Shown here piece by piece: positions 2-8,170 of a stretch of 64,000 nt of DNA. Within the stretch, counting starts at the first letter, position 1. Each line of letters begins with the position of its first letter. The stretch spans positions 3,215 through 67,214 of the IMG/VR virus record IMGVR_UViG_3300022756_000004, one strand, 5' to 3'. Both the position numbers and the translations under genes were made by a program. The notes under the pieces are model-generated. The model was not told the DNA's origin. It worked only from the letters and a program-made list of their open reading frames with translations, and made no database searches. This DNA is from a virus.

Positions 2-1525
2 CTGCTGCGAGGTGAGGACCAAGACGGGCTGGAGTTGTACATCCCGTCCGCGCGCAAAATGGTGGACGCAGCGAATCGTTTCCTCGCTAAGGACTTCAGC
101 TATGTGGTGAGCCCCAAATTCGGAGACAATGCGCAGCGAGCCGAAGCTGAACTGGCGATGAGCAATCTCTTCAAGCGCGAGAAGATGCACTCCAAATTCA
201 ACAACCAGCGGCGCTACTATCTCATTCGCGGGGATGCGCTATGGCACATCACCGCTGACGAGACCAAGCTGCCAGGTTCCAAGATAAGCATTCATGAGCT
301 GAACCCTAGTAACTACTTCGCGATCGAAGATCCCGATAATTCGGATCGGTTGCTGGGTGCGCACCTCGTAGACTTCGTGCAAGACCCGAACAAGCCGGAC
401 GATCGCTCGGCCAAGATTGTTCGTCGTCAGACGTACCTTCGAGCGAACGCCGTGCTCGACAAGAATGGTGGTTACTTTGTCCCACTGGGGAGCGATCCCG
501 GAGGATGGACTAGTGCGCTAACCTTCTGGGAAATTGGTAAGTGGGACGATCGGTATCTGAAGACGGCAGATCTCAAGCCGGTATCGAATCCAGCGACTAA
601 GCCTCAGTTCGCGCTGGATGCTCGCATCACTTCGATGCCGATCTACCACTGGAAGAACAATCAGATCCCCGGACAGACCTACGGCCTCAGCGAGATCGCA
701 GGCGTAGAGACTCTCATCTCGGGCATCAATCAGTCTCTCACAGACGAGAACCTGACGCTGGTGATGCAAGGTCTCGGCGTGTACGCGACGGACGCAGCTC
801 CGCCAAAGAACGCAGACGGCACTGATGGCGATTGGACCATCGGCCCCGCCACAGTGGCTGAGGTGGGACAGGGCAACTTCTTCAATCGCGTGAGCGGCGT
901 GTCCACCGTGGCCCCGTTCCAAGATCACAGCAAGTCGCTTCACGAGCACATGTCTCAGGCGCTGGGCATTCCCGAGATCGCGCAAGGCCGAGTAGACGTC
1001 ACGGTGGCGGAATCGGGCATCTCGCTGTCGCTTCAGCTGGGACCGATTCTTTCGAACAATGAGGTGAAGGAAGTAGAGATTCTGGGTACGCACGACCAGA
1101 TGTTCTACGACCTGATGACCATGTGGTTCCCCGTGTTCGAGAGTCTGGACCTTCCGGATGTGCGGGTTGTCTCAGTAGTGGGCGATCCCATGCCCGTGAA
1201 CCGCGAGGCTCGCATCCAAGAGATCCTGCTGCTCCAGGCTAGTGGTCTCATCACTATCGCACAGGCACAGGCCAAGCTGTCGCAGTACGGCTACACCTTC
1301 GACGAAGGTGATGATCTCAAGGTGGTTCAGGAGGCTGCTGCGATCGCTGCCGCTCAGAATGGCGATGAGCTGGCGAATCGTTGGGCTCAGGAGATTGAAG
1401 GCCAAGCGAAGAATTGGTCTGCGAATATCGGCACCTCCAGTGTTGCGAGTGCCGCAGTTCAGGGCACGGGCGCACCCTCTGTGACCACGGTAACGAACAA
1501 CAACGCGGGGCCGGGCGCAAGGTAG
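2..1525 (+). CDS. Portal protein (5' truncated by window edge)
   Basis: Frame is open from base 2. ~500 aa with SPP1-gp6-like portal features (RGDALW, YGLSEI..., SGISL), first gene of the head cluster. Confidence 0.8.
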   Translation: MLRGEDQDGLELYIPSARKMVDAANRFLAKDFSYVVSPKFGDNAQRAEAELAMSNLFKREKMHSKFNNQRRYYLIRGDALWHITADETKLPGSKISIHELNPSNYFAIEDPDNSDRLLGAHLVDFVQDPNKPDDRSAKIVRRQTYLRANAVLDKNGGYFVPLGSDPGGWTSALTFWEIGKWDDRYLKTADLKPVSNPATKPQFALDARITSMPIYHWKNNQIPGQTYGLSEIAGVETLISGINQSLTDENLTLVMQGLGVYATDAAPPKNADGTDGDWTIGPATVAEVGQGNFFNRVSGVSTVAPFQDHSKSLHEHMSQALGIPEIAQGRVDVTVAESGISLSLQLGPILSNNEVKEVEILGTHDQMFYDLMTMWFPVFESLDLPDVRVVSVVGDPMPVNREARIQEILLLQASGLITIAQAQAKLSQYGYTFDEGDDLKVVQEAAAIAAAQNGDELANRWAQEIEGQAKNWSANIGTSSVASAAVQGTGAPSVTTVTNNNAGPGAR

Positions 1526-1552: not shown

Positions 1553-1750
1553 GTGGCGTTCGGCATTCGCAAGTTTGCGGTACGAGTGCAGCGGCAGAAC
1601 GCGAGTGTCAGGCGTCCCGTCCATAACACCCTGGTCATGCAACACCGGATCGGGGCGGGCGTCAAGGCTCCCAAGTCTGCCAAGAAGGCGGAAGATAGAT
1701 TGAAGAATCTTCTACGCGGGTCCAAGCTGAAGAGGGGATTGAAGCACTGA
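1553..1750 (+). CDS. Small basic protein
   Basis: GAGGAGG RBS, GTG start, K/R-rich 65 aa, TGATG coupling to next gene. Confidence 0.7.
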   Translation: MAFGIRKFAVRVQRQNASVRRPVHNTLVMQHRIGAGVKAPKSAKKAEDRLKNLLRGSKLKRGLKH

Positions 1751-2802
1751 TGGCACGTCGTCGTAAGTACAATCCCTCCCAGAAGCGGGACTTCCATGGT
1801 CGTTGGTCAACCGGTTCTCTTGGAGGACTCAAGACCGCTGGCGCTACTCCTATCAAGAGGAGTAGTTCTATGGCTAGCGCTACCGGGGGAAACACCAAGC
1901 GTTACGATGCGTTCCTTGCGAAACAGGCACAGCAGAAGCAGGCCGCGCGTAGGACGAACATCAAGCGGGCCGCGCTTGGTGCGGTGGTCGTAGGTGCTGC
2001 CGGTGCGGGGGCGTATATTGGTTCACGTGGAAACAACAAGGGAACCAAGGATGCCCCGCTCGGAAACGTCGCACACGTTCCCGTCAAATCTAAAGGACCG
2101 AAAGCGCCGTTCATTGGAAAGATCACTGAGCCAACGAAAATGGAGACTGCACCGAGCCCGTCTCGCACAGTTTCTCCTGCACCTGTTCACGCGAAAGCAG
2201 TAAACGGAACCGAGGTTAAGCCGAGTAAGCCCACGGCTAAATCGAATCCCACTTCTTCGCCAGTGGCAGCCAAGGTGACGACCGGTGTCGCAACAGTGCA
2301 GAGCGAACGTGCACTGGTAGATCTGAAGCGCAAGGGGCCGAAGCCGAAGTCTAATCCTACGAGCAATTCCGTCCCTACGCCGGGCGCGCTCATCACCGAA
2401 GACGGCAAGCACGTCACGGTCGTCAAGGGGCTGAACGACGCCGAGCGCATTCGTCTGGAGAACAACGCCGTTGCCGCAGCGAAGAAGCTGGCGGACTTGG
2501 AGAAGAAGGCGGGCGTCAACGTAGGTTCGCAGGCTCGTAGGGACTTCGAAAAGAAGAACAAGGCGAAGCGAACCAAGGCGCAGGCTAAGCTCGACGCCAA
2601 TGAGGCTATCCGCCTCAAGCGCCGTGAGGATATGTCCAAGGCTATCCAAGATAGCTTCGGGGCCGGGGCAGTGGTAAAGGCTACAGGGTCCCGGAGGGAC
2701 CGAGCTGAGGCGCGGTACGTGTCTATCCTTGAGAATATGATGGATAGGGGTACAGCTCTCAATCGTGCGCAGCGCAAGTTCCTCAAAGATTACGGAGTAT
2801 GA
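1750..2802 (+). CDS. Basic head-region protein with RDxxGRW motif and hydrophobic segment
   Basis: N-terminal QKRDFHGRWS, then AALGAVVVGAAGAGAYIG; K/P-rich; coupled to upstream gene. Confidence 0.8.
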   Translation: MARRRKYNPSQKRDFHGRWSTGSLGGLKTAGATPIKRSSSMASATGGNTKRYDAFLAKQAQQKQAARRTNIKRAALGAVVVGAAGAGAYIGSRGNNKGTKDAPLGNVAHVPVKSKGPKAPFIGKITEPTKMETAPSPSRTVSPAPVHAKAVNGTEVKPSKPTAKSNPTSSPVAAKVTTGVATVQSERALVDLKRKGPKPKSNPTSNSVPTPGALITEDGKHVTVVKGLNDAERIRLENNAVAAAKKLADLEKKAGVNVGSQARRDFEKKNKAKRTKAQAKLDANEAIRLKRREDMSKAIQDSFGAGAVVKATGSRRDRAEARYVSILENMMDRGTALNRAQRKFLKDYGV

Positions 2803-2803
2803 T

Positions 2804-3160
2804 ATGGGACTACGTCGTGGATACAAGCGAGACACCCGAGGCCGGTTCTCTAGGACTGCGGGATCGAAGGGCACCAAGAGCGTAGCGAAGCGTTCGTCTC
2901 CTAAGCGCAAGAGATCGGCGCTCGCAAGCCACAAGGCGGCTCGTCGGGCGATCGCTCAGCATAAGGCTTCAAAGCTTCCGAAGTTGACCACGGCTCAGGC
3001 GAACGCTCGGCGCAAGAAGATCAGGCGGAACGTCAATATCGCGAGGGCTGTGATTATCGCTGGCGCGGTGGGTGCGCAGGCGTACGGAGCGCATCAGGCA
3101 GCTTCTCCAACCCTCGCGACTCGTCGTATGCACGCTCATGACATGGGGCAGCGAATGTAA
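2804..3160 (+). CDS. Basic head-region protein with RDxxGRF motif
   Basis: ATG at 2804 after GGAG. YKRDTRGRFS, very R/K-rich, hydrophobic AVIIAGAVGAQAYG. Confidence 0.75.
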   Translation: MGLRRGYKRDTRGRFSRTAGSKGTKSVAKRSSPKRKRSALASHKAARRAIAQHKASKLPKLTTAQANARRKKIRRNVNIARAVIIAGAVGAQAYGAHQAASPTLATRRMHAHDMGQRM

Positions 3161-3240
3161 TATGGCTCTGTCTAGGATTGAGGACGAAGATTACATGAAG
3201 CGAGCCAGGGCTTATCTGGAGTTAGGAGGTTTTGATCCCA

Positions 3241-3430
3241 TTGTCTCCGAAACGTAAACGTGGAGTGTATCACGGCTTTAAGTCCAAGAAGCAATGGCGA
3301 AGACCGATGGGCCTTTGCGAGTAAACAGCCATGGGCGCACGAGAAGGCGCATCGCACAGCGGGCGGGCCGAAGATACGGTATCGTAGGTTGCCAGCGAGC
3401 AAGCACAGCGGAAAGAAGGGAAGGCGATGA
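3241..3430 (+). pseudogene. Frameshifted small basic gene (GFKSKKQWR / WAFASKQPWA...)
   Basis: AGGAGG then TTG at 3241 reads MSPKRKRGVYHGFKSKKQWR. The +1 frame from 3302 continues RWAFASKQPWAHEKAHR...KKGRR to TGA 3430, which overlaps the ATG at 3427. Confidence 0.55.
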
Positions 3431-3972
3431 GCCGGTTCAATAGTCGCCAGGCGCGAGATCGTTTCGGCCGATGGACTTCGGGCCGTAAGGTCTCGAGCGT
3501 GCCCTACACTCGGCATAGTCTTCGCTCTCAGACGGCAGGCATCAACGCTGGCACCAACATCTCCAAGAACTATCGTGTCTCGGCGGGGGTGCATTTCCGC
3601 GTGGAGCGGCGCAGCCCGACCAAGTTCGAAAGTGCAGTCACGGCCAAGAACGAATCCGCCATCAAGAAGCTCGTAAAGAAGATCAGTCCGGGCGAGCACC
3701 TAGATCCCGTGATTGAGAAGACCATTCGCAAGGCCCAGAATCGAGTAACGAGCAAGGTCCTGGGCCAAACGGTGAATCTCGGCAAGAAGGTCAATGTCCG
3801 TGGCGGAACCACGCGGTCCGGCCTTCCTTCCGTGACGGTTCGATATGGTGGCAGCAAGAAGGCTGCTGCGAATCGTTCTTCGGGTATCTCTCAGTTCAAC
3901 TCTGCGATGCAGGGGAAGCGCGTTGCGAGGGCAGCCTCCAAGGCTCCTCGGCCTCAGCGTCGAGGTAAGTAA
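3427..3972 (+). CDS. Basic head-region protein with RDxxGRW motif
   Basis: QARDRFGRWTS at N-terminus, 181 aa, very basic. Confidence 0.8.
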   Translation: MSRFNSRQARDRFGRWTSGRKVSSVPYTRHSLRSQTAGINAGTNISKNYRVSAGVHFRVERRSPTKFESAVTAKNESAIKKLVKKISPGEHLDPVIEKTIRKAQNRVTSKVLGQTVNLGKKVNVRGGTTRSGLPSVTVRYGGSKKAAANRSSGISQFNSAMQGKRVARAASKAPRPQRRGK

Positions 3973-3992: not shown

Positions 3993-4136
3993 ATGGGAAA
4001 GCCATCCAAGGGGACGAAGAAGGATCGGCGTCTCAAATCTAATAAGAGCACGAAGAAGAAGCGCAAGGGCAGCGGATCTGCGAAGAAGTTGAACAAGAAG
4101 AAGTCCCCGGCCTTCAACAAGATTCTGGTGTACTGA
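3993..4136 (+). CDS. 47-aa lysine-rich protein (not in ORF track)
   Basis: AAGGAG RBS. MGKPSKGTKKDRRLKSNKSTKKKRKGSGSAKKLNKKKSPAFNKILVY. TGATG coupling to the JAB gene. Confidence 0.75.
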   Translation: MGKPSKGTKKDRRLKSNKSTKKKRKGSGSAKKLNKKKSPAFNKILVY

Positions 4137-4498
4137 TGATTGATCTTCCAGCGAATACCATTCATGGCCTGGTGGCTCTGGCGAACAGCATTCAGGAAAT
4201 CTGCGGATATGTGCTGGATGATGGCAGTTTCATTGTGATGCCGAATATCTCTGATGCCCCGATGGATTCGTACGAGGTGAATCCGGAGTCTCAGGGATGG
4301 ATCCTCCCAATGGTTTGGGAGAGAGTTGTCGCGATGTTCCATACACATCCTCGAGGCATCTGCTGGCCTAGTGATGAAGACATGAGGAATTGGCCTCCGG
4401 CTGCTTCTGAGGGCGGTGCGAGATACTTCATCGTCACTGCCCGAGAGGTGAGAGAGTTCAGATTGGACGAGGATGGCAAGCCAAAGCCTGTCGGATAA
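4136..4498 (+). CDS. JAB/MPN+ (JAMM) metalloprotease
   Basis: EICG near N-terminus plus HTHPRGICWPSDED, the canonical E...HxHx7Sx2D motif. Confidence 0.85.
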   Translation: MIDLPANTIHGLVALANSIQEICGYVLDDGSFIVMPNISDAPMDSYEVNPESQGWILPMVWERVVAMFHTHPRGICWPSDEDMRNWPPAASEGGARYFIVTAREVREFRLDEDGKPKPVG

Positions 4499-5375
4499 GG
4501 AGAACTGGCTTGTCCGCTTCCTCAGGGTTCAGAAGGCATCTGACGCCCAAGTTGCCGCAGTGCTACAGGCTGCATTAGAGGACCTTGACAAGCACCTCAG
4601 CCGCATTGACGCTGCGCCGGGTGTAGGTGCCGCTGTGCGGCGTGCTCAACTGCTGGGCAACCGTGGGGCCATCACGATGGTGCTCTCATCGCTGTACAAG
4701 AAGCTCGGAGATGTAGTTCGAGAGGGCCAGGCGAATGCGGCACAGGCGGCCACGGAGGCCGAGTTTCATTCTGCATCTAAGATCTATGATCGCATCATTG
4801 AAGATCCGGCTAAGCGGGAAGTCCTCAAGCGATCGTTGGAACAGACCTCTCGACGTAATATTCAAGTCACGGTAACGAGGATGACCGACTCTCAGCAGCC
4901 GCTGAGTAAGCGGTTATATAGGTCTGAAGCCCTATCTAAAGGCCAAGTTAGCCGAGTCGTAAATAGCCATCTCGCTAAGGGATCGTCTGCGGCAGACATG
5001 GCGAAGGATCTAAGGTCGTTCTTCAACCCCAAAGTGCCCGGTGGAGTGAGCTTTAGAGCTCAAACCTTGGCTCGAAGCGAAATAAATAATGCGTTTCATG
5101 CGCAAGCTGCGGCTGATATGGCCGATCGACCTTGGGTGAATCAGTCCAGATGGCATCTTTCCGGCTCGCACAAAGTTCCCGACGAGTGCAATACCTACGC
5201 CTCGATCGGGTTATTTCCGGTAGATCGTATTCCCAAGAAGCCTCATCCGAATTGCTTGTGCTATATCACTCCCGATCTTCCGGATGTTCAGACAGTGATC
5301 AACGATTATCTGGCTGGGAAATACAATTCGTGGCTCGCCGAACACACAGATGATGGGCTCCGCCGGTCCGCATGA
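4473..5375 (+). CDS. MuF-like minor head protein
   Basis: TLARSEINNAFH and C...PHPNCLC motifs; located between portal and scaffold. Confidence 0.8.
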   Translation: MASQSLSDKENWLVRFLRVQKASDAQVAAVLQAALEDLDKHLSRIDAAPGVGAAVRRAQLLGNRGAITMVLSSLYKKLGDVVREGQANAAQAATEAEFHSASKIYDRIIEDPAKREVLKRSLEQTSRRNIQVTVTRMTDSQQPLSKRLYRSEALSKGQVSRVVNSHLAKGSSAADMAKDLRSFFNPKVPGGVSFRAQTLARSEINNAFHAQAAADMADRPWVNQSRWHLSGSHKVPDECNTYASIGLFPVDRIPKKPHPNCLCYITPDLPDVQTVINDYLAGKYNSWLAEHTDDGLRRSA

Positions 5376-5427
5376 GGTAGTATGTCGGCAGGCTTCAAGC
5401 ATACCGACGAACCGGAGGTTCTCCGAA

Positions 5428-6177
5428 ATGAGCAAGAGCTCCCTTCCCCGACTGGATCTTTTTCTGCTGCCGTTCCGTGGCGGAAACAACGATGGCTCTG
5501 CGGGAGATGATGGCAACGAATCGTCAAAGGGTGCCGTCGATAAGGTGGCGGACAAGGATGATGACGATGATGGCGACGAAGATCACGATGATGATGATCT
5601 GTCTGGCATCGCAGATCCACGAGATCGCCAGATCGCGGCACTGAGCAGGGAAGCGGCACGGCATCGCCGCGAGAAGAACAAGAACAAGAAGGAAGCGGAG
5701 CGCATTCAGGGAGAGCTGGATGCCCTGAAGAACGGCAAGGGAACCGAGCAGGAGCAGTGGGAAGCTGAGAAGAGGTCGTTCGAGCAGAAGTACGAAGAGC
5801 TGCTCACGAACACTTCCAACACAGTCCTTCGAAACGCGGTGAGGGATCCCGACAATAAGTACTCGTGGTACGATGTACCGGTGGTAATGAGCTTGGTCAA
5901 TCGCGACGTAATCGAGATCGATCTCGAAGAAGGCGTCGTGGACGGCTTGGAGGCCGAACTGAAGCGCATTGCCAAAGAGAAGCCGTATCTCGTGAAGAAG
6001 GCTCCTGCTGGTGGCGGGAACTCCAATAACGGGAACAACGGAAATGGATCGGTATCCGGCAGCGCCGGATCTGCGGGTAGCACAGGAAGCAATCCGTCCG
6101 GTCGGAATAGCTCCAACGACGCAAAAGCGGCCCAGAGGGCGACACTCGAAAGTAAGTATCCGGGGCTTAGTGTATAG
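5428..6177 (+). CDS. Capsid scaffolding protein
   Basis: GGAGG RBS, ATG 5428. Acidic N-region, coiled coil (LSREAARHR), KPYL and C-terminal KYPGL; upstream of capsid. Confidence 0.8.
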   Translation: MSKSSLPRLDLFLLPFRGGNNDGSAGDDGNESSKGAVDKVADKDDDDDGDEDHDDDDLSGIADPRDRQIAALSREAARHRREKNKNKKEAERIQGELDALKNGKGTEQEQWEAEKRSFEQKYEELLTNTSNTVLRNAVRDPDNKYSWYDVPVVMSLVNRDVIEIDLEEGVVDGLEAELKRIAKEKPYLVKKAPAGGGNSNNGNNGNGSVSGSAGSAGSTGSNPSGRNSSNDAKAAQRATLESKYPGLSV

Positions 6178-6204
6178 CTCTGGAACAATCCAAGGAAGGT
6201 AATC

Positions 6205-6603
6205 GTGGCTCGTTACGATAAGTACGACCCGATGGTGGGCGGTTTCCGCGCGCCCCTTGCCGCTGACTGGCTGCTCGCTGATGTGAATCGACCCCGTGGG
6301 GTCGGTCTCAATTCCAGTGGCCAGATCGTCAAGGGAGCTGGCAACACCGGCATCGTGGGCATTCTGATTCTCACTAAGATCCGCAAGGCTGGTGAGATCG
6401 TGGACACCATGGACGCGGGCGAGATTGTGGAATGGGATCCCGTTACTGCGGGTACGTTCGGCACGGCGGGAACTACTTATTACGCCGATGCGACTACGGG
6501 TGTCATCAATTCCACTTCGGCCACTGGCAAGTTCCAGGTTGGCCGGACGGCTGAAGGCACTCGTCTTGTCTGCCGCGTGAACCGGACGGCGGTGCCCGCA
6601 TGA
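6205..6603 (+). CDS. Capsid decoration/minor capsid protein
   Basis: 132 aa G/T-rich, between scaffold and major capsid, ATGA-coupled. Confidence 0.7.
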   Translation: MARYDKYDPMVGGFRAPLAADWLLADVNRPRGVGLNSSGQIVKGAGNTGIVGILILTKIRKAGEIVDTMDAGEIVEWDPVTAGTFGTAGTTYYADATTGVINSTSATGKFQVGRTAEGTRLVCRVNRTAVPA

Positions 6604-7784
6604 TCAAGTCGAATCTCCTCGAACTGCTGCTCCTTCCGTTCAAGGGTGCGGACTTCAAGGGCGGTTACCACACCGAAGGTGACATCGTCACCGTCACTCT
6701 CGACGGTATTGATGTTAACTCGCTGTGGGATGAATTCCAGGCTACCCTCGACATCTACAACGCGAAGCGCGCTCAGCTCATCGGGCTGCTGACCTACCCG
6801 GTCACCAACCTCGTCGAGACTGTCCCGCAGGTTGGCGATGCGACCTTCGAAGAGGCGTCTGAGTTCGGCGTCCCGAAGTCGAGCCGCGTGACCGTCGATT
6901 ACTTCCAGCTGGGTTACGACTTCAAGTGGTACGACGTCGCGAACCGCTTCACCTGGAAGTACCTGGCAGATGCGGACGCCCGTCAGATCCAGGCGATCCA
7001 CAACAAGATCCTCGAGGCTGACCAGAAGCTCGTCTTCCGGAAGGTCATGGAGGCGATCTTCGACAACCGGAACCGCTCCGCGGACATCCGAACCCAGACG
7101 TACAACGTCTATCCGATCTACAACGCTGACGGAACCGTTCCGCCCACCTACAAGGGCGAGACCTTCGACGGCACCCACTCTCACTTCGTGGTGTCGGCTG
7201 GCGCGCAGATCGACTCGGGTGACCTCGAGGATGCGTACGAGCACATCGCCGAGCACGGCTTCTCCATCGAGAACGGCACCACTGTCGTTTCCATGGTGAA
7301 CCGCGCGCAGGCGAAGGAGATCCGAAAGTTCAAGGCCGGGGCCGTCAACAACAACGGCGTCACCGCGAACTACGACTTCATCCCGGCGGCGGGTCAGCCC
7401 GCCATCATCATCCCGAATGCGGATGGTCTCCTGGGTGAGCGGCCTCCGAGCCAGTACAAGGGCTTCAAGGTGATTGGCTCCTACGCGGATGTCCTGATCA
7501 TCGAGGAGTCGTACATCCCCGAGGGCTACATGCTGACCTTCGGTTCGGGTGGCGCGGGCAATCTGCAGAACCTCGTCGGCCTGCGCGAGCACGCCAACCA
7601 GGCGATGCGCGGCCTGCGACTGCTGCCGGGTAACCAGCAGAACTACCCCCTCGTGGAGTCGTTCTACAACCGTGGCTTCGGCACCGGCATCCGTCAGCGC
7701 GGTGGTGCGGTCGTGACGCAGTTCAAGGCGTCCGGTTCGTACGACATCCCGACCGTGTACGCGAACGGTGGAGGGCTGGTCTAG
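6600..7784 (+). CDS. Major capsid protein
   Basis: 394 aa, strongest codon bias of the region, EEASEFGVP motif, position in head operon. Confidence 0.85.
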   Translation: MIKSNLLELLLLPFKGADFKGGYHTEGDIVTVTLDGIDVNSLWDEFQATLDIYNAKRAQLIGLLTYPVTNLVETVPQVGDATFEEASEFGVPKSSRVTVDYFQLGYDFKWYDVANRFTWKYLADADARQIQAIHNKILEADQKLVFRKVMEAIFDNRNRSADIRTQTYNVYPIYNADGTVPPTYKGETFDGTHSHFVVSAGAQIDSGDLEDAYEHIAEHGFSIENGTTVVSMVNRAQAKEIRKFKAGAVNNNGVTANYDFIPAAGQPAIIIPNADGLLGERPPSQYKGFKVIGSYADVLIIEESYIPEGYMLTFGSGGAGNLQNLVGLREHANQAMRGLRLLPGNQQNYPLVESFYNRGFGTGIRQRGGAVVTQFKASGSYDIPTVYANGGGLV

Positions 7785-7786
7785 TC

Positions 7787-8170
7787 ATGAGCCTGCATGG
7801 TAAGATCGATCTCTCCCGGCCTCTCACGGACGCCGAGAAGGAGTGGCTGGTCACCCGTCCGGGTGGCAAAGCCTCGGTCGCAGTGAACGATCGGCAGTTC
7901 GGTCACATGTCGGACGAAGAGCGGTCTGCCTTGCAGGTCTCTCATCAGGAAGACGTGGACGACGAGGCCTCTCGTCTCCGGGCCTATCTCCAGGAAGAAG
8001 ACGAAGACGGGGAAGGTTTCGATCCCGAGGACGTCGGAAAGGTTGCGCCCCTCACGGTCACGGAGCTTCGCGCGTGGCTGAAGAAGAAGGGCGAGGACCA
8101 GACCGGATCCAAGGAAGAACTCCAGATCCGTATGCTGGAAAAGATGGAAGCTGACCGCGAGGCCAAGTAG
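7787..8170 (+). CDS. Protein with C-terminal SAP/HeH-like domain
   Basis: LTVTELRAWLKKKGEDQTGSKEELQIRM matches the SAP pattern. Confidence 0.7.
   Translation: MSLHGKIDLSRPLTDAEKEWLVTRPGGKASVAVNDRQFGHMSDEERSALQVSHQEDVDDEASRLRAYLQEEDEDGEGFDPEDVGKVAPLTVTELRAWLKKKGEDQTGSKEELQIRMLEKMEADREAK

Follow-up and report, generated by a model that had tools for sequence, protein, structure and literature searches.

The stretch of DNA analysed here, called the window, comprises 64,000 nucleotides (bases 3215-67214) of the 67,214-base virus record IMGVR_UViG_3300022756_000004, which is rated 99% complete. A head-morphogenesis operon occupies its left end on the + strand, with the genes in the order portal, three lysine/arginine-rich genes, JAB peptidase, MuF-like protein, scaffold, minor capsid protein, and major capsid protein (MCP). 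The ten products from the portal to the gene after the MCP gene were scanned with Pfam. We focused on the JAB gene and on a short N-terminal leader that the scaffold and the MCP have in common, which the JAB protein may cut off. These features are as follows.

4136..4498, + strand: JAB/MPN+ (JAMM) zinc peptidase gene, 120 amino acids, proposed leader peptidase (PF14464 match, catalytic motif, fold model)
5428..6177, + strand: scaffolding protein gene, 249 amino acids (PF06810, 38.9 bits; phrog_4866, E 2.6e-28)
5428..5484, + strand: scaffold leader, 19 codons ending LLPFRGG, predicted cut Gly19/Asn20
6600..7784, + strand: MCP gene, 394 amino acids (phrog_3990, E 7e-173)
6600..6650, + strand: MCP leader, 17 codons ending LLPFKGA, predicted cut Ala17/Asp18

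JAB gene and shared leader in the window

The JAB gene belongs to the JAMM/MPN+ family by profile, motif, and fold. Residues 15-110 match Pfam Prok-JAB (PF14464) with 29 bits against a cut-off of 25, and the catalytic motif reads E21 ... H69-x-H71-x7-S79-x2-D82. E21, G24, N37, H69, H71, P72, and D82 are invariant in all 25 JAB homologues (25/25), whose mean identity is 29%; S79 is kept in 23 of them and is Thr in the other two. The AlphaFold2 model has a mean predicted local distance difference test (pLDDT) value of 93.1, and its top Foldseek match is 5ld9_A (E 4.7e-8, template modelling score 0.71). The model matches 97 PDB chains at E<=0.001, and among the matches listed the top ones are mostly JAMM enzymes. 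The best are P. furiosus JAMM1, alone and with the ubiquitin-like SAMP2, followed by Rpn11, AMSH, BRCC36, and the deubiquitinase 8tyx of a bacterial ubiquitin-like protein (Ubl). The 3' end of the gene overlaps the start of the MuF-like gene by 26 nt, and neighbouring JAB and MuF genes recur in the related loci that we searched with our own profiles. An earlier note on this DNA had described an intact JAMM gene between portal and MuF, and the profile match, the catalytic residues, and the gene order bear this out.

Classical prohead proteases (S78 HK97 type, ClpP-like, and S49 lambda C type) are encoded in the portal-capsid interval and process the capsid and scaffold proteins as the head matures. 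PF04586 (S78), PF00574 (ClpP), and PF01343 (S49) gave no match at E<=1 anywhere in the 67,214-base genome, which agrees with the same note's statement that no HK97- or ClpP-type prohead protease is recognisable. The JAB protein itself is not in any known prohead protease family (S78, ClpP-like S14, S49), and Pfam recognised no peptidase family other than JAB among the ten head-operon products. E1, E2, and Ubl genes were also not found among these ten products, the rest of the genome not being scanned for E1 and E2.

The scaffold start at ATG 5428 that the earlier note had chosen is sound, with GGAGG 9 nt upstream. [quoted passage not shown] The same scan found the motif in none of the three lysine/arginine-rich proteins. 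A shared N-terminal motif on scaffold and capsid protein, as in the Prp-type processing of phage 80alpha, is therefore present here. Three of the five identical leader residues use different codons in the two genes, and differing codons are likewise found among the shared motif residues of four relatives. The different codons point to conservation at the protein level, and a recent DNA duplication as the source of the shared leader was rejected for this reason.

Leader and peptidase genes in related lineages

Relatives of the MCP are present in 161 GenBank phage records (Mycobacterium 72, Gordonia 46, Microbacterium 38, Arthrobacter 2, and one each for Nocardia, Micrococcus, and Curtobacterium), the best identity being about 65%, to Gordonia phages. 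The JAB protein matched 116 records by tblastn (Mycobacterium 69, Gordonia 46, Nocardia 1). Micrococcus phage Kurnik, missed by tblastn, has an intact JAB open reading frame (ORF) of 34.9 bits in the portal-MuF interval (L006, about 6626-6904; OR756649.1, 13582-13860), a stretch that its record assigns to a hypothetical protein read in a different frame. Another 80 loci came from viral contigs scanned with an MCP alignment, and all loci were searched with our own profiles for JAB, MuF, scaffold, and MCP. Grouping the MCPs at 85% identity resulted in 49 lineages, referred to by L numbers where they must be told apart. The portal-scaffold interval is visible in 41 of them and off the contig in 8.

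The leader recurs on scaffold and MCP across the 49 lineages, and its motif changes with the phage. Motifs common to the two proteins are FFAFGGDGG in Terapin, F-[LV]-F-G-[AC]-D-P in LittleFella, PIFGG in Patience, GL(TL)SGHD in PLot and Adjutor, DIVGAD in Kurnik, and I-[AI]-F-R-G-A-D in L094. In general, hydrophobic residues, often including Pro, lead up to Gly and a small residue, after which comes an acidic or polar residue. Phage-specific patterns matched only the scaffold and MCP N-termini in nine of ten related loci; the pattern for the tenth was written too narrowly and matched the MCP only. The MCP leader of L046 and L047 contains the cut-site motif VPFGGD twice in tandem.

A JAB gene is in the head operon, between portal and MCP, in 29 of the 41 lineages, nearly always directly 5' of MuF. 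Searches of ten related contigs with PF14464 gave no match, so we read the interval directly and found genes for DUF6527 or HExxH proteins. In three lineages (L040, L052, and L070/L071), a DUF6527 protein (36.8-40.2 bits, cut-off 23.6) takes the place of the JAB, and the contigs of these lineages have no Prok-JAB match. DUF6527 was in turn found above its cut-off neither in the genome of the window nor in five JAB-bearing records. Thus, JAB and DUF6527 are mutually exclusive in the genomes sampled. In addition to the DUF6527 gene beside MuF, L052 has an HExxH gene of a second type (HExxH-B, 212-580) upstream of the terminase gene. Relatives of its DUF6527 protein (L052, 3778-4113) are found in 276 phage records, mostly of about 157-kb Salmonella, Klebsiella, and Escherichia phages, and are hypothetical proteins in the 15 records listed.

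HExxH proteins are in the place of the JAB in two lineages (the L093 group of four loci, and L080). H87, E88, H91, and E126 are invariant across six sequences, and Pfam gives SprT-like matches below the cut-off. The fold prediction for HExxH-A from a 6-row alignment was uninformative (pLDDT 56.2, no Foldseek match at E<=0.001), so the peptidase assignment draws on the invariant residues and the sub-cut-off matches. In three other lineages (Triscuit, Hiddenleaf, and Wollypog), a JAB or JAB-like gene lies outside the head operon. The JAB-like protein gp3 of Hiddenleaf (L004, 759-1193), encoded upstream of the terminase gene, has the motif HSH-x6-S-x2-D and is kept in 36 Microbacterium phage records.

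Two lineages, L062 and L090, have no leader and no JAB, DUF6527, or HExxH gene. In these two lineages alone, the MCP begins just two residues ahead of the conserved mature N-terminus, which was placed by local alignment across loci, and no alternative in-frame start exists upstream of either MCP gene. Their scaffolds (PF06810, 77.2 and 57.5 bits) are leaderless too and begin with the low-complexity region that elsewhere comes after the leader. The MCP tree places L090 as sister of L071, a DUF6527 lineage (support 100/99), and groups L062 with the HExxH lineages (support 89/78). These separate, supported branches require two separate changes. The L090 contig is rated 86% complete. The peptidase gene is thus replaced or lost in step with the leader. 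The leader is not limited to JAB phages; it also occurs beside DUF6527 and HExxH genes and, in two lineages, without any peptidase gene that we could find. Taken literally, a leader in phages lacking the JAB counts against the idea by the earlier note's own refutation test; the pattern as a whole nevertheless supports a peptidase encoded in that place.

Proposed leader removal and its rival explanations

Published data on two relatives bear on whether the leader is removed. Pope 2014 reports peptides of the Patience scaffold gp21 that start after Gly34, a start explained by neither trypsin cleavage nor translation initiation in that account. We checked the record and found that residues 30-34 are PIFGG; gp21 aligns with the window scaffold over 212 residues (E 5e-9). 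According to the structural report on these capsids (Nat Commun 2025, PMC11965321), the Patience MCP model was built from Thr20 and the Adjutor MCP model from Asn28, with density lacking before these residues. In the checked records, Thr20 comes directly after PIFGG and Asn28 directly after GLSGHD. The model starts coincide with the motif ends, so the portion missing from the particles is the portion shared with the scaffold. By this homology, the cut in the window phage is predicted at Gly19/Asn20 in the scaffold, from the Patience scaffold peptides, and at Ala17/Asp18 in the MCP, from the two capsid model starts. The MCP has a second possible site, FKGG before Tyr, which the earlier note had also considered. 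The Adjutor model starts at Asn28 of NQGGY and retains the homologous, conserved GGY, which makes a cut after FKGG unlikely and places the cut after LLPFKGA.

We propose that the JAMM/MPN+ zinc peptidase encoded at 4136-4498 is the head-maturation peptidase of this actinobacterial phage. The scaffold and the MCP would both be made with an N-terminal propeptide, a hydrophobic stretch ending in LLPF-(R/K)-G-(G/A). Like its deubiquitinase relatives, which act on the bond behind the Gly-Gly tail of Ubls, the enzyme would cut immediately after the two small residues and leave mature N-termini at Asn20 of the scaffold and Asp18 of the capsid protein. Enzyme and leader would co-evolve, and in some lineages another peptidase would have replaced the enzyme, or enzyme and leader would both have been given up. 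On the comparative and published evidence, we consider it likely that both leaders are removed by the JAB through a cut behind Gly-Gly/Ala. A deubiquitinase-type head-maturation protease, already suggested in the earlier note, is the best-supported reading on the basis of the 49 related lineages and the published N-termini of Patience and Adjutor; the FKGG site, the exclusive link of leader and JAB, and full novelty are the parts that need correction. Leader removal in the window phage, the JAB as the remover, and the exact bond cut are what we infer from the relatives. We also predicted a complex of the JAB (25-row alignment), MCP residues 1-40, and Zn, and obtained a score of 0.13 against a mark of 0.32; controls were not run, and the result was counted neither for nor against binding.

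The pairing of scaffold and MCP motifs was compared in the 43 lineages with both N-termini. The mean best 7-mer score between scaffold and MCP was 22.2 within phages and 17.3 between phages. None of 10,000 re-pairings reached the observed within-phage mean, in a test that kinship between phages inflates. Some scaffold starts (e.g. L003, L036, and L071) are set too far upstream, which lowers their within-phage scores and deflates the test.

Several observations, including the inflation by kinship, weigh against the JAB as leader peptidase. A phage's own scaffold ranked first for only 8 of 43 MCPs and among the three best for 15. Leaders of the same general form accompany three unrelated peptidase families, and this form may therefore be conserved for assembly and not because the enzyme recognises it. 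The leader occurs without a detectable peptidase gene in two of the 41 lineages, L085 and the fragment L089. For L085, a search of the whole 46.7-kb contig (84% complete) with our JAB and DUF6527 profiles and motif patterns found only one HExxH-bearing ORF, on the opposite strand. The JAB of Triscuit (35.4 bits) is about 5 kb upstream of the terminase gene, and the only candidates of Hiddenleaf and Wollypog score 15.7 and 12.4 bits, under the Pfam cut-off, and are encoded a long way from the head operon. The 13-kb contig of L062 has a rated completeness of 20%, and a peptidase gene may lie elsewhere in that genome. Absent density in cryo-electron microscopy may mean disorder instead of removal. 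Finally, Pope 2014 inferred that the Patience capsid protein is cut between residues 82 and 83. This cut does not fit the later Patience model starting at Thr20. For Patience gp23 (L008, 3923-5125), the two papers thus disagree on the mature N-terminus. The published data on Patience and Adjutor fit N-terminal shortening at the shared motif, with the earlier paper putting the capsid cut elsewhere.

The leaders may instead be removed by a host peptidase or by self-processing, with the JAB having another role in head assembly, for example the trimming of another head protein. The precedent is 80alpha, in which host Prp is reported to cut both capsid protein and scaffold, and the leader of L085 without a recognisable phage peptidase and the constant leader form across the JAB, DUF6527, and HExxH lineages would also fit. 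We regard this explanation as unlikely. Patience, recorded on M. smegmatis mc2 155, and Adjutor/PLot are all mycobacteriophages but have different motifs; this diversity speaks against a single host enzyme with a set specificity and against a motif copied from a host protein, as with L27 in 80alpha. Furthermore, both leaderless lineages are also without a peptidase gene, three peptidase families occupy one place, and no other protein of the window has the motif.

The JAB, or DUF6527 in relatives, could also be a counter-defence deubiquitinase that strips host Ubl tags from virion proteins, with the leader being unrelated to it. Bacterial systems are reported to attach a Ubl to a tail protein of a phage (bioRxiv 10.1101/2023.09.04.556158), JAB and DUF6527 are both peptidases of Ubl-conjugation systems, and the 276 phage records with DUF6527 relatives are of many kinds. 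However, the place of the JAB beside MuF in the head-morphogenesis operon is fixed across about 29% identity, the gene is also replaced by those of HExxH proteins, which are not known deubiquitinases, it is lost jointly with the leader, and the cuts deduced for Patience come exactly after the Gly-Gly of the shared motif. Tag removal, which the earlier note had offered as its alternative, fits the data less well than leader removal, and we judge it very unlikely.

We also think it hardly probable that the leader stays uncleaved and acts as an assembly or chaperone-docking signal, with the N-terminus merely disordered in the capsid maps of the relatives. The 80alpha scaffold leader is reported to be needed for assembly and its cleavage to be dispensable, and lacking density is no proof of removal. 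Against this stand the Patience gp21 peptide, which begins after Gly34 at neither a tryptic site nor an initiation site in the published account, and the agreement of model starts with motif ends in two phages. A tail-assembly role like that of lambda K, suggested by matches of the JAB to phrog_5556, phrog_30, and phrog_2635 with tail labels ('tail protein') and by the JAB domains that Iyer 2006 describes in lambdoid tail-assembly clusters, was rejected as barely credible, because this JAB is a stand-alone 120-residue domain without NlpC/P60 and lies in the head module between portal and MuF, away from the tail genes and any ubiquitin-like tail assembly protein.

On a broader scale, we see about an even chance that a lineage of actinobacterial phages turned peptidases of Ubl systems into capsid maturation enzymes. 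The propeptide end would then imitate a Ubl tail, the unrelated JAMM zinc, BubE-type DUF6527 serine, and HExxH zinc peptidases would have been exchanged for one another in the head operon, and leader and enzyme would have been discarded jointly twice.

Known systems and neighbouring genes

The head-maturation proteases known to us are a few serine families and the host cysteine protease Prp of 80alpha. The classical prohead proteases are serine proteases, whereas the candidate in the window is a small zinc JAMM enzyme. JAMM deubiquitinases and Ubl-processing peptidases cut after the terminal Gly-Gly of a Ubl. JAMM1, Rpn11, AMSH, BRCC36, and 8tyx share the fold and the catalytic motif with the window JAB, and the cut proposed here, directly after a Gly-Gly-like tail, would be like theirs. 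In contrast, the substrate of the window JAB would be an N-terminal propeptide of 17-19 residues and not a beta-grasp domain, and the setting would be virion assembly.

Phage 80alpha is the closest known system in logic, and the comparison with it that the earlier note had drawn, a leader shared by scaffold and capsid protein and removed by a protease, holds. As in the window phage, a short N-terminal sequence is common to the otherwise unrelated scaffold and MCP. In published accounts of 80alpha, host Prp removes a leader of 13-14 residues from both proteins; the motif copies that of ribosomal protein L27 and is cut between Phe and Ala. In the window phage, the candidate enzyme is phage-encoded and of JAMM type, the motif ends in Gly-Gly/Ala, and it varies among phages.

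Lambda K also contains a phage-encoded JAB domain, which is proposed to process a morphogenesis protein after a terminal glycine (Iyer 2006). It is described as combining JAB with NlpC/P60 in the tail module, beside the ubiquitin-like protein I, whereas the window JAB has a single domain and belongs to the head module. In its account of phage JABs, Iyer 2006 treats them solely in the context of tail assembly. DUF6527 is the BubE family of the bacterial Bub operons, three related lineages carrying it in the portal-MuF interval in place of the JAB. In a 2024 preprint, BubE is reported to be a Ser-His peptidase active on a BubA-GFP peptide fusion, which it cleaves, and on BubA-target conjugates, which it removes, and the C-terminal Gly of BubA has been modelled at its active site (10.1101/2024.11.21.623953).

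The gene is variously labelled 'protease', 'metalloprotease', 'capsid maturation protease', 'JAB/MPN domain protein', 'tail protein', or 'hypothetical' in the records of relatives. A protease function has thus already been noted there, and the idea is new only as to mechanism, on which we found no paper. In the literature on JAB/JAMM/MPN proteins as prohead or capsid maturation proteases, we found no paper that links this gene to the leader, to the published N-termini, or to the DUF6527 and HExxH exchanges. If the proposal is correct, a JAMM metallopeptidase acting on a propeptide with a ubiquitin-like Gly-Gly end would be a new enzymatic solution and would add a metallopeptidase class to the head-maturation proteases. 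It would link virus assembly to the bacterial ubiquitin-like toolkit, explain a gene that is inconsistently labelled in the public records of more than 100 actinophages, and give phage DUF6527 proteins their first concrete role. The natural exchanges (JAB, DUF6527, HExxH, none) are ready-made controls, and with Patience, Adjutor, Terapin, and LittleFella available as cultured relatives, the idea can be tested directly.

The other genes of the operon are listed below.

2..1525, + strand: portal gene, 5' end outside the window (phrog_64, E 1e-34)
1750-2802, 2804-3160, and 3427-3972, + strand: three lysine/arginine-rich genes between portal and JAB, no Pfam family above cut-off
4473..5375, + strand: MuF-like minor head protein gene (phrog_17987, E 4e-68; PF04233 weak, 19.2 bits)
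6205..6603, + strand: minor capsid protein gene, labelled so in relatives (phrog_5042, E 5e-54)

The lysine/arginine-rich proteins (1750-3972) may be internal head proteins or ejected proteins. The third of them (3427-3972) matches phrog_12708, labelled 'head maturation protease', with E 7e-16. In L089, an 808-residue protein with an ADP-ribosyltransferase exoenzyme domain (80.9 bits) is encoded in or beside MuF (5063-7486), and the 502-residue MuF protein of L090 (3329-4834) contains a papain-fold glutamine deamidase domain (25.6 bits). The gene directly 3' of the MCP gene in the window (7787-8170) encodes an acidic protein of 127 residues, with a SAP domain exactly at the Pfam cut-off of 23.9 bits.

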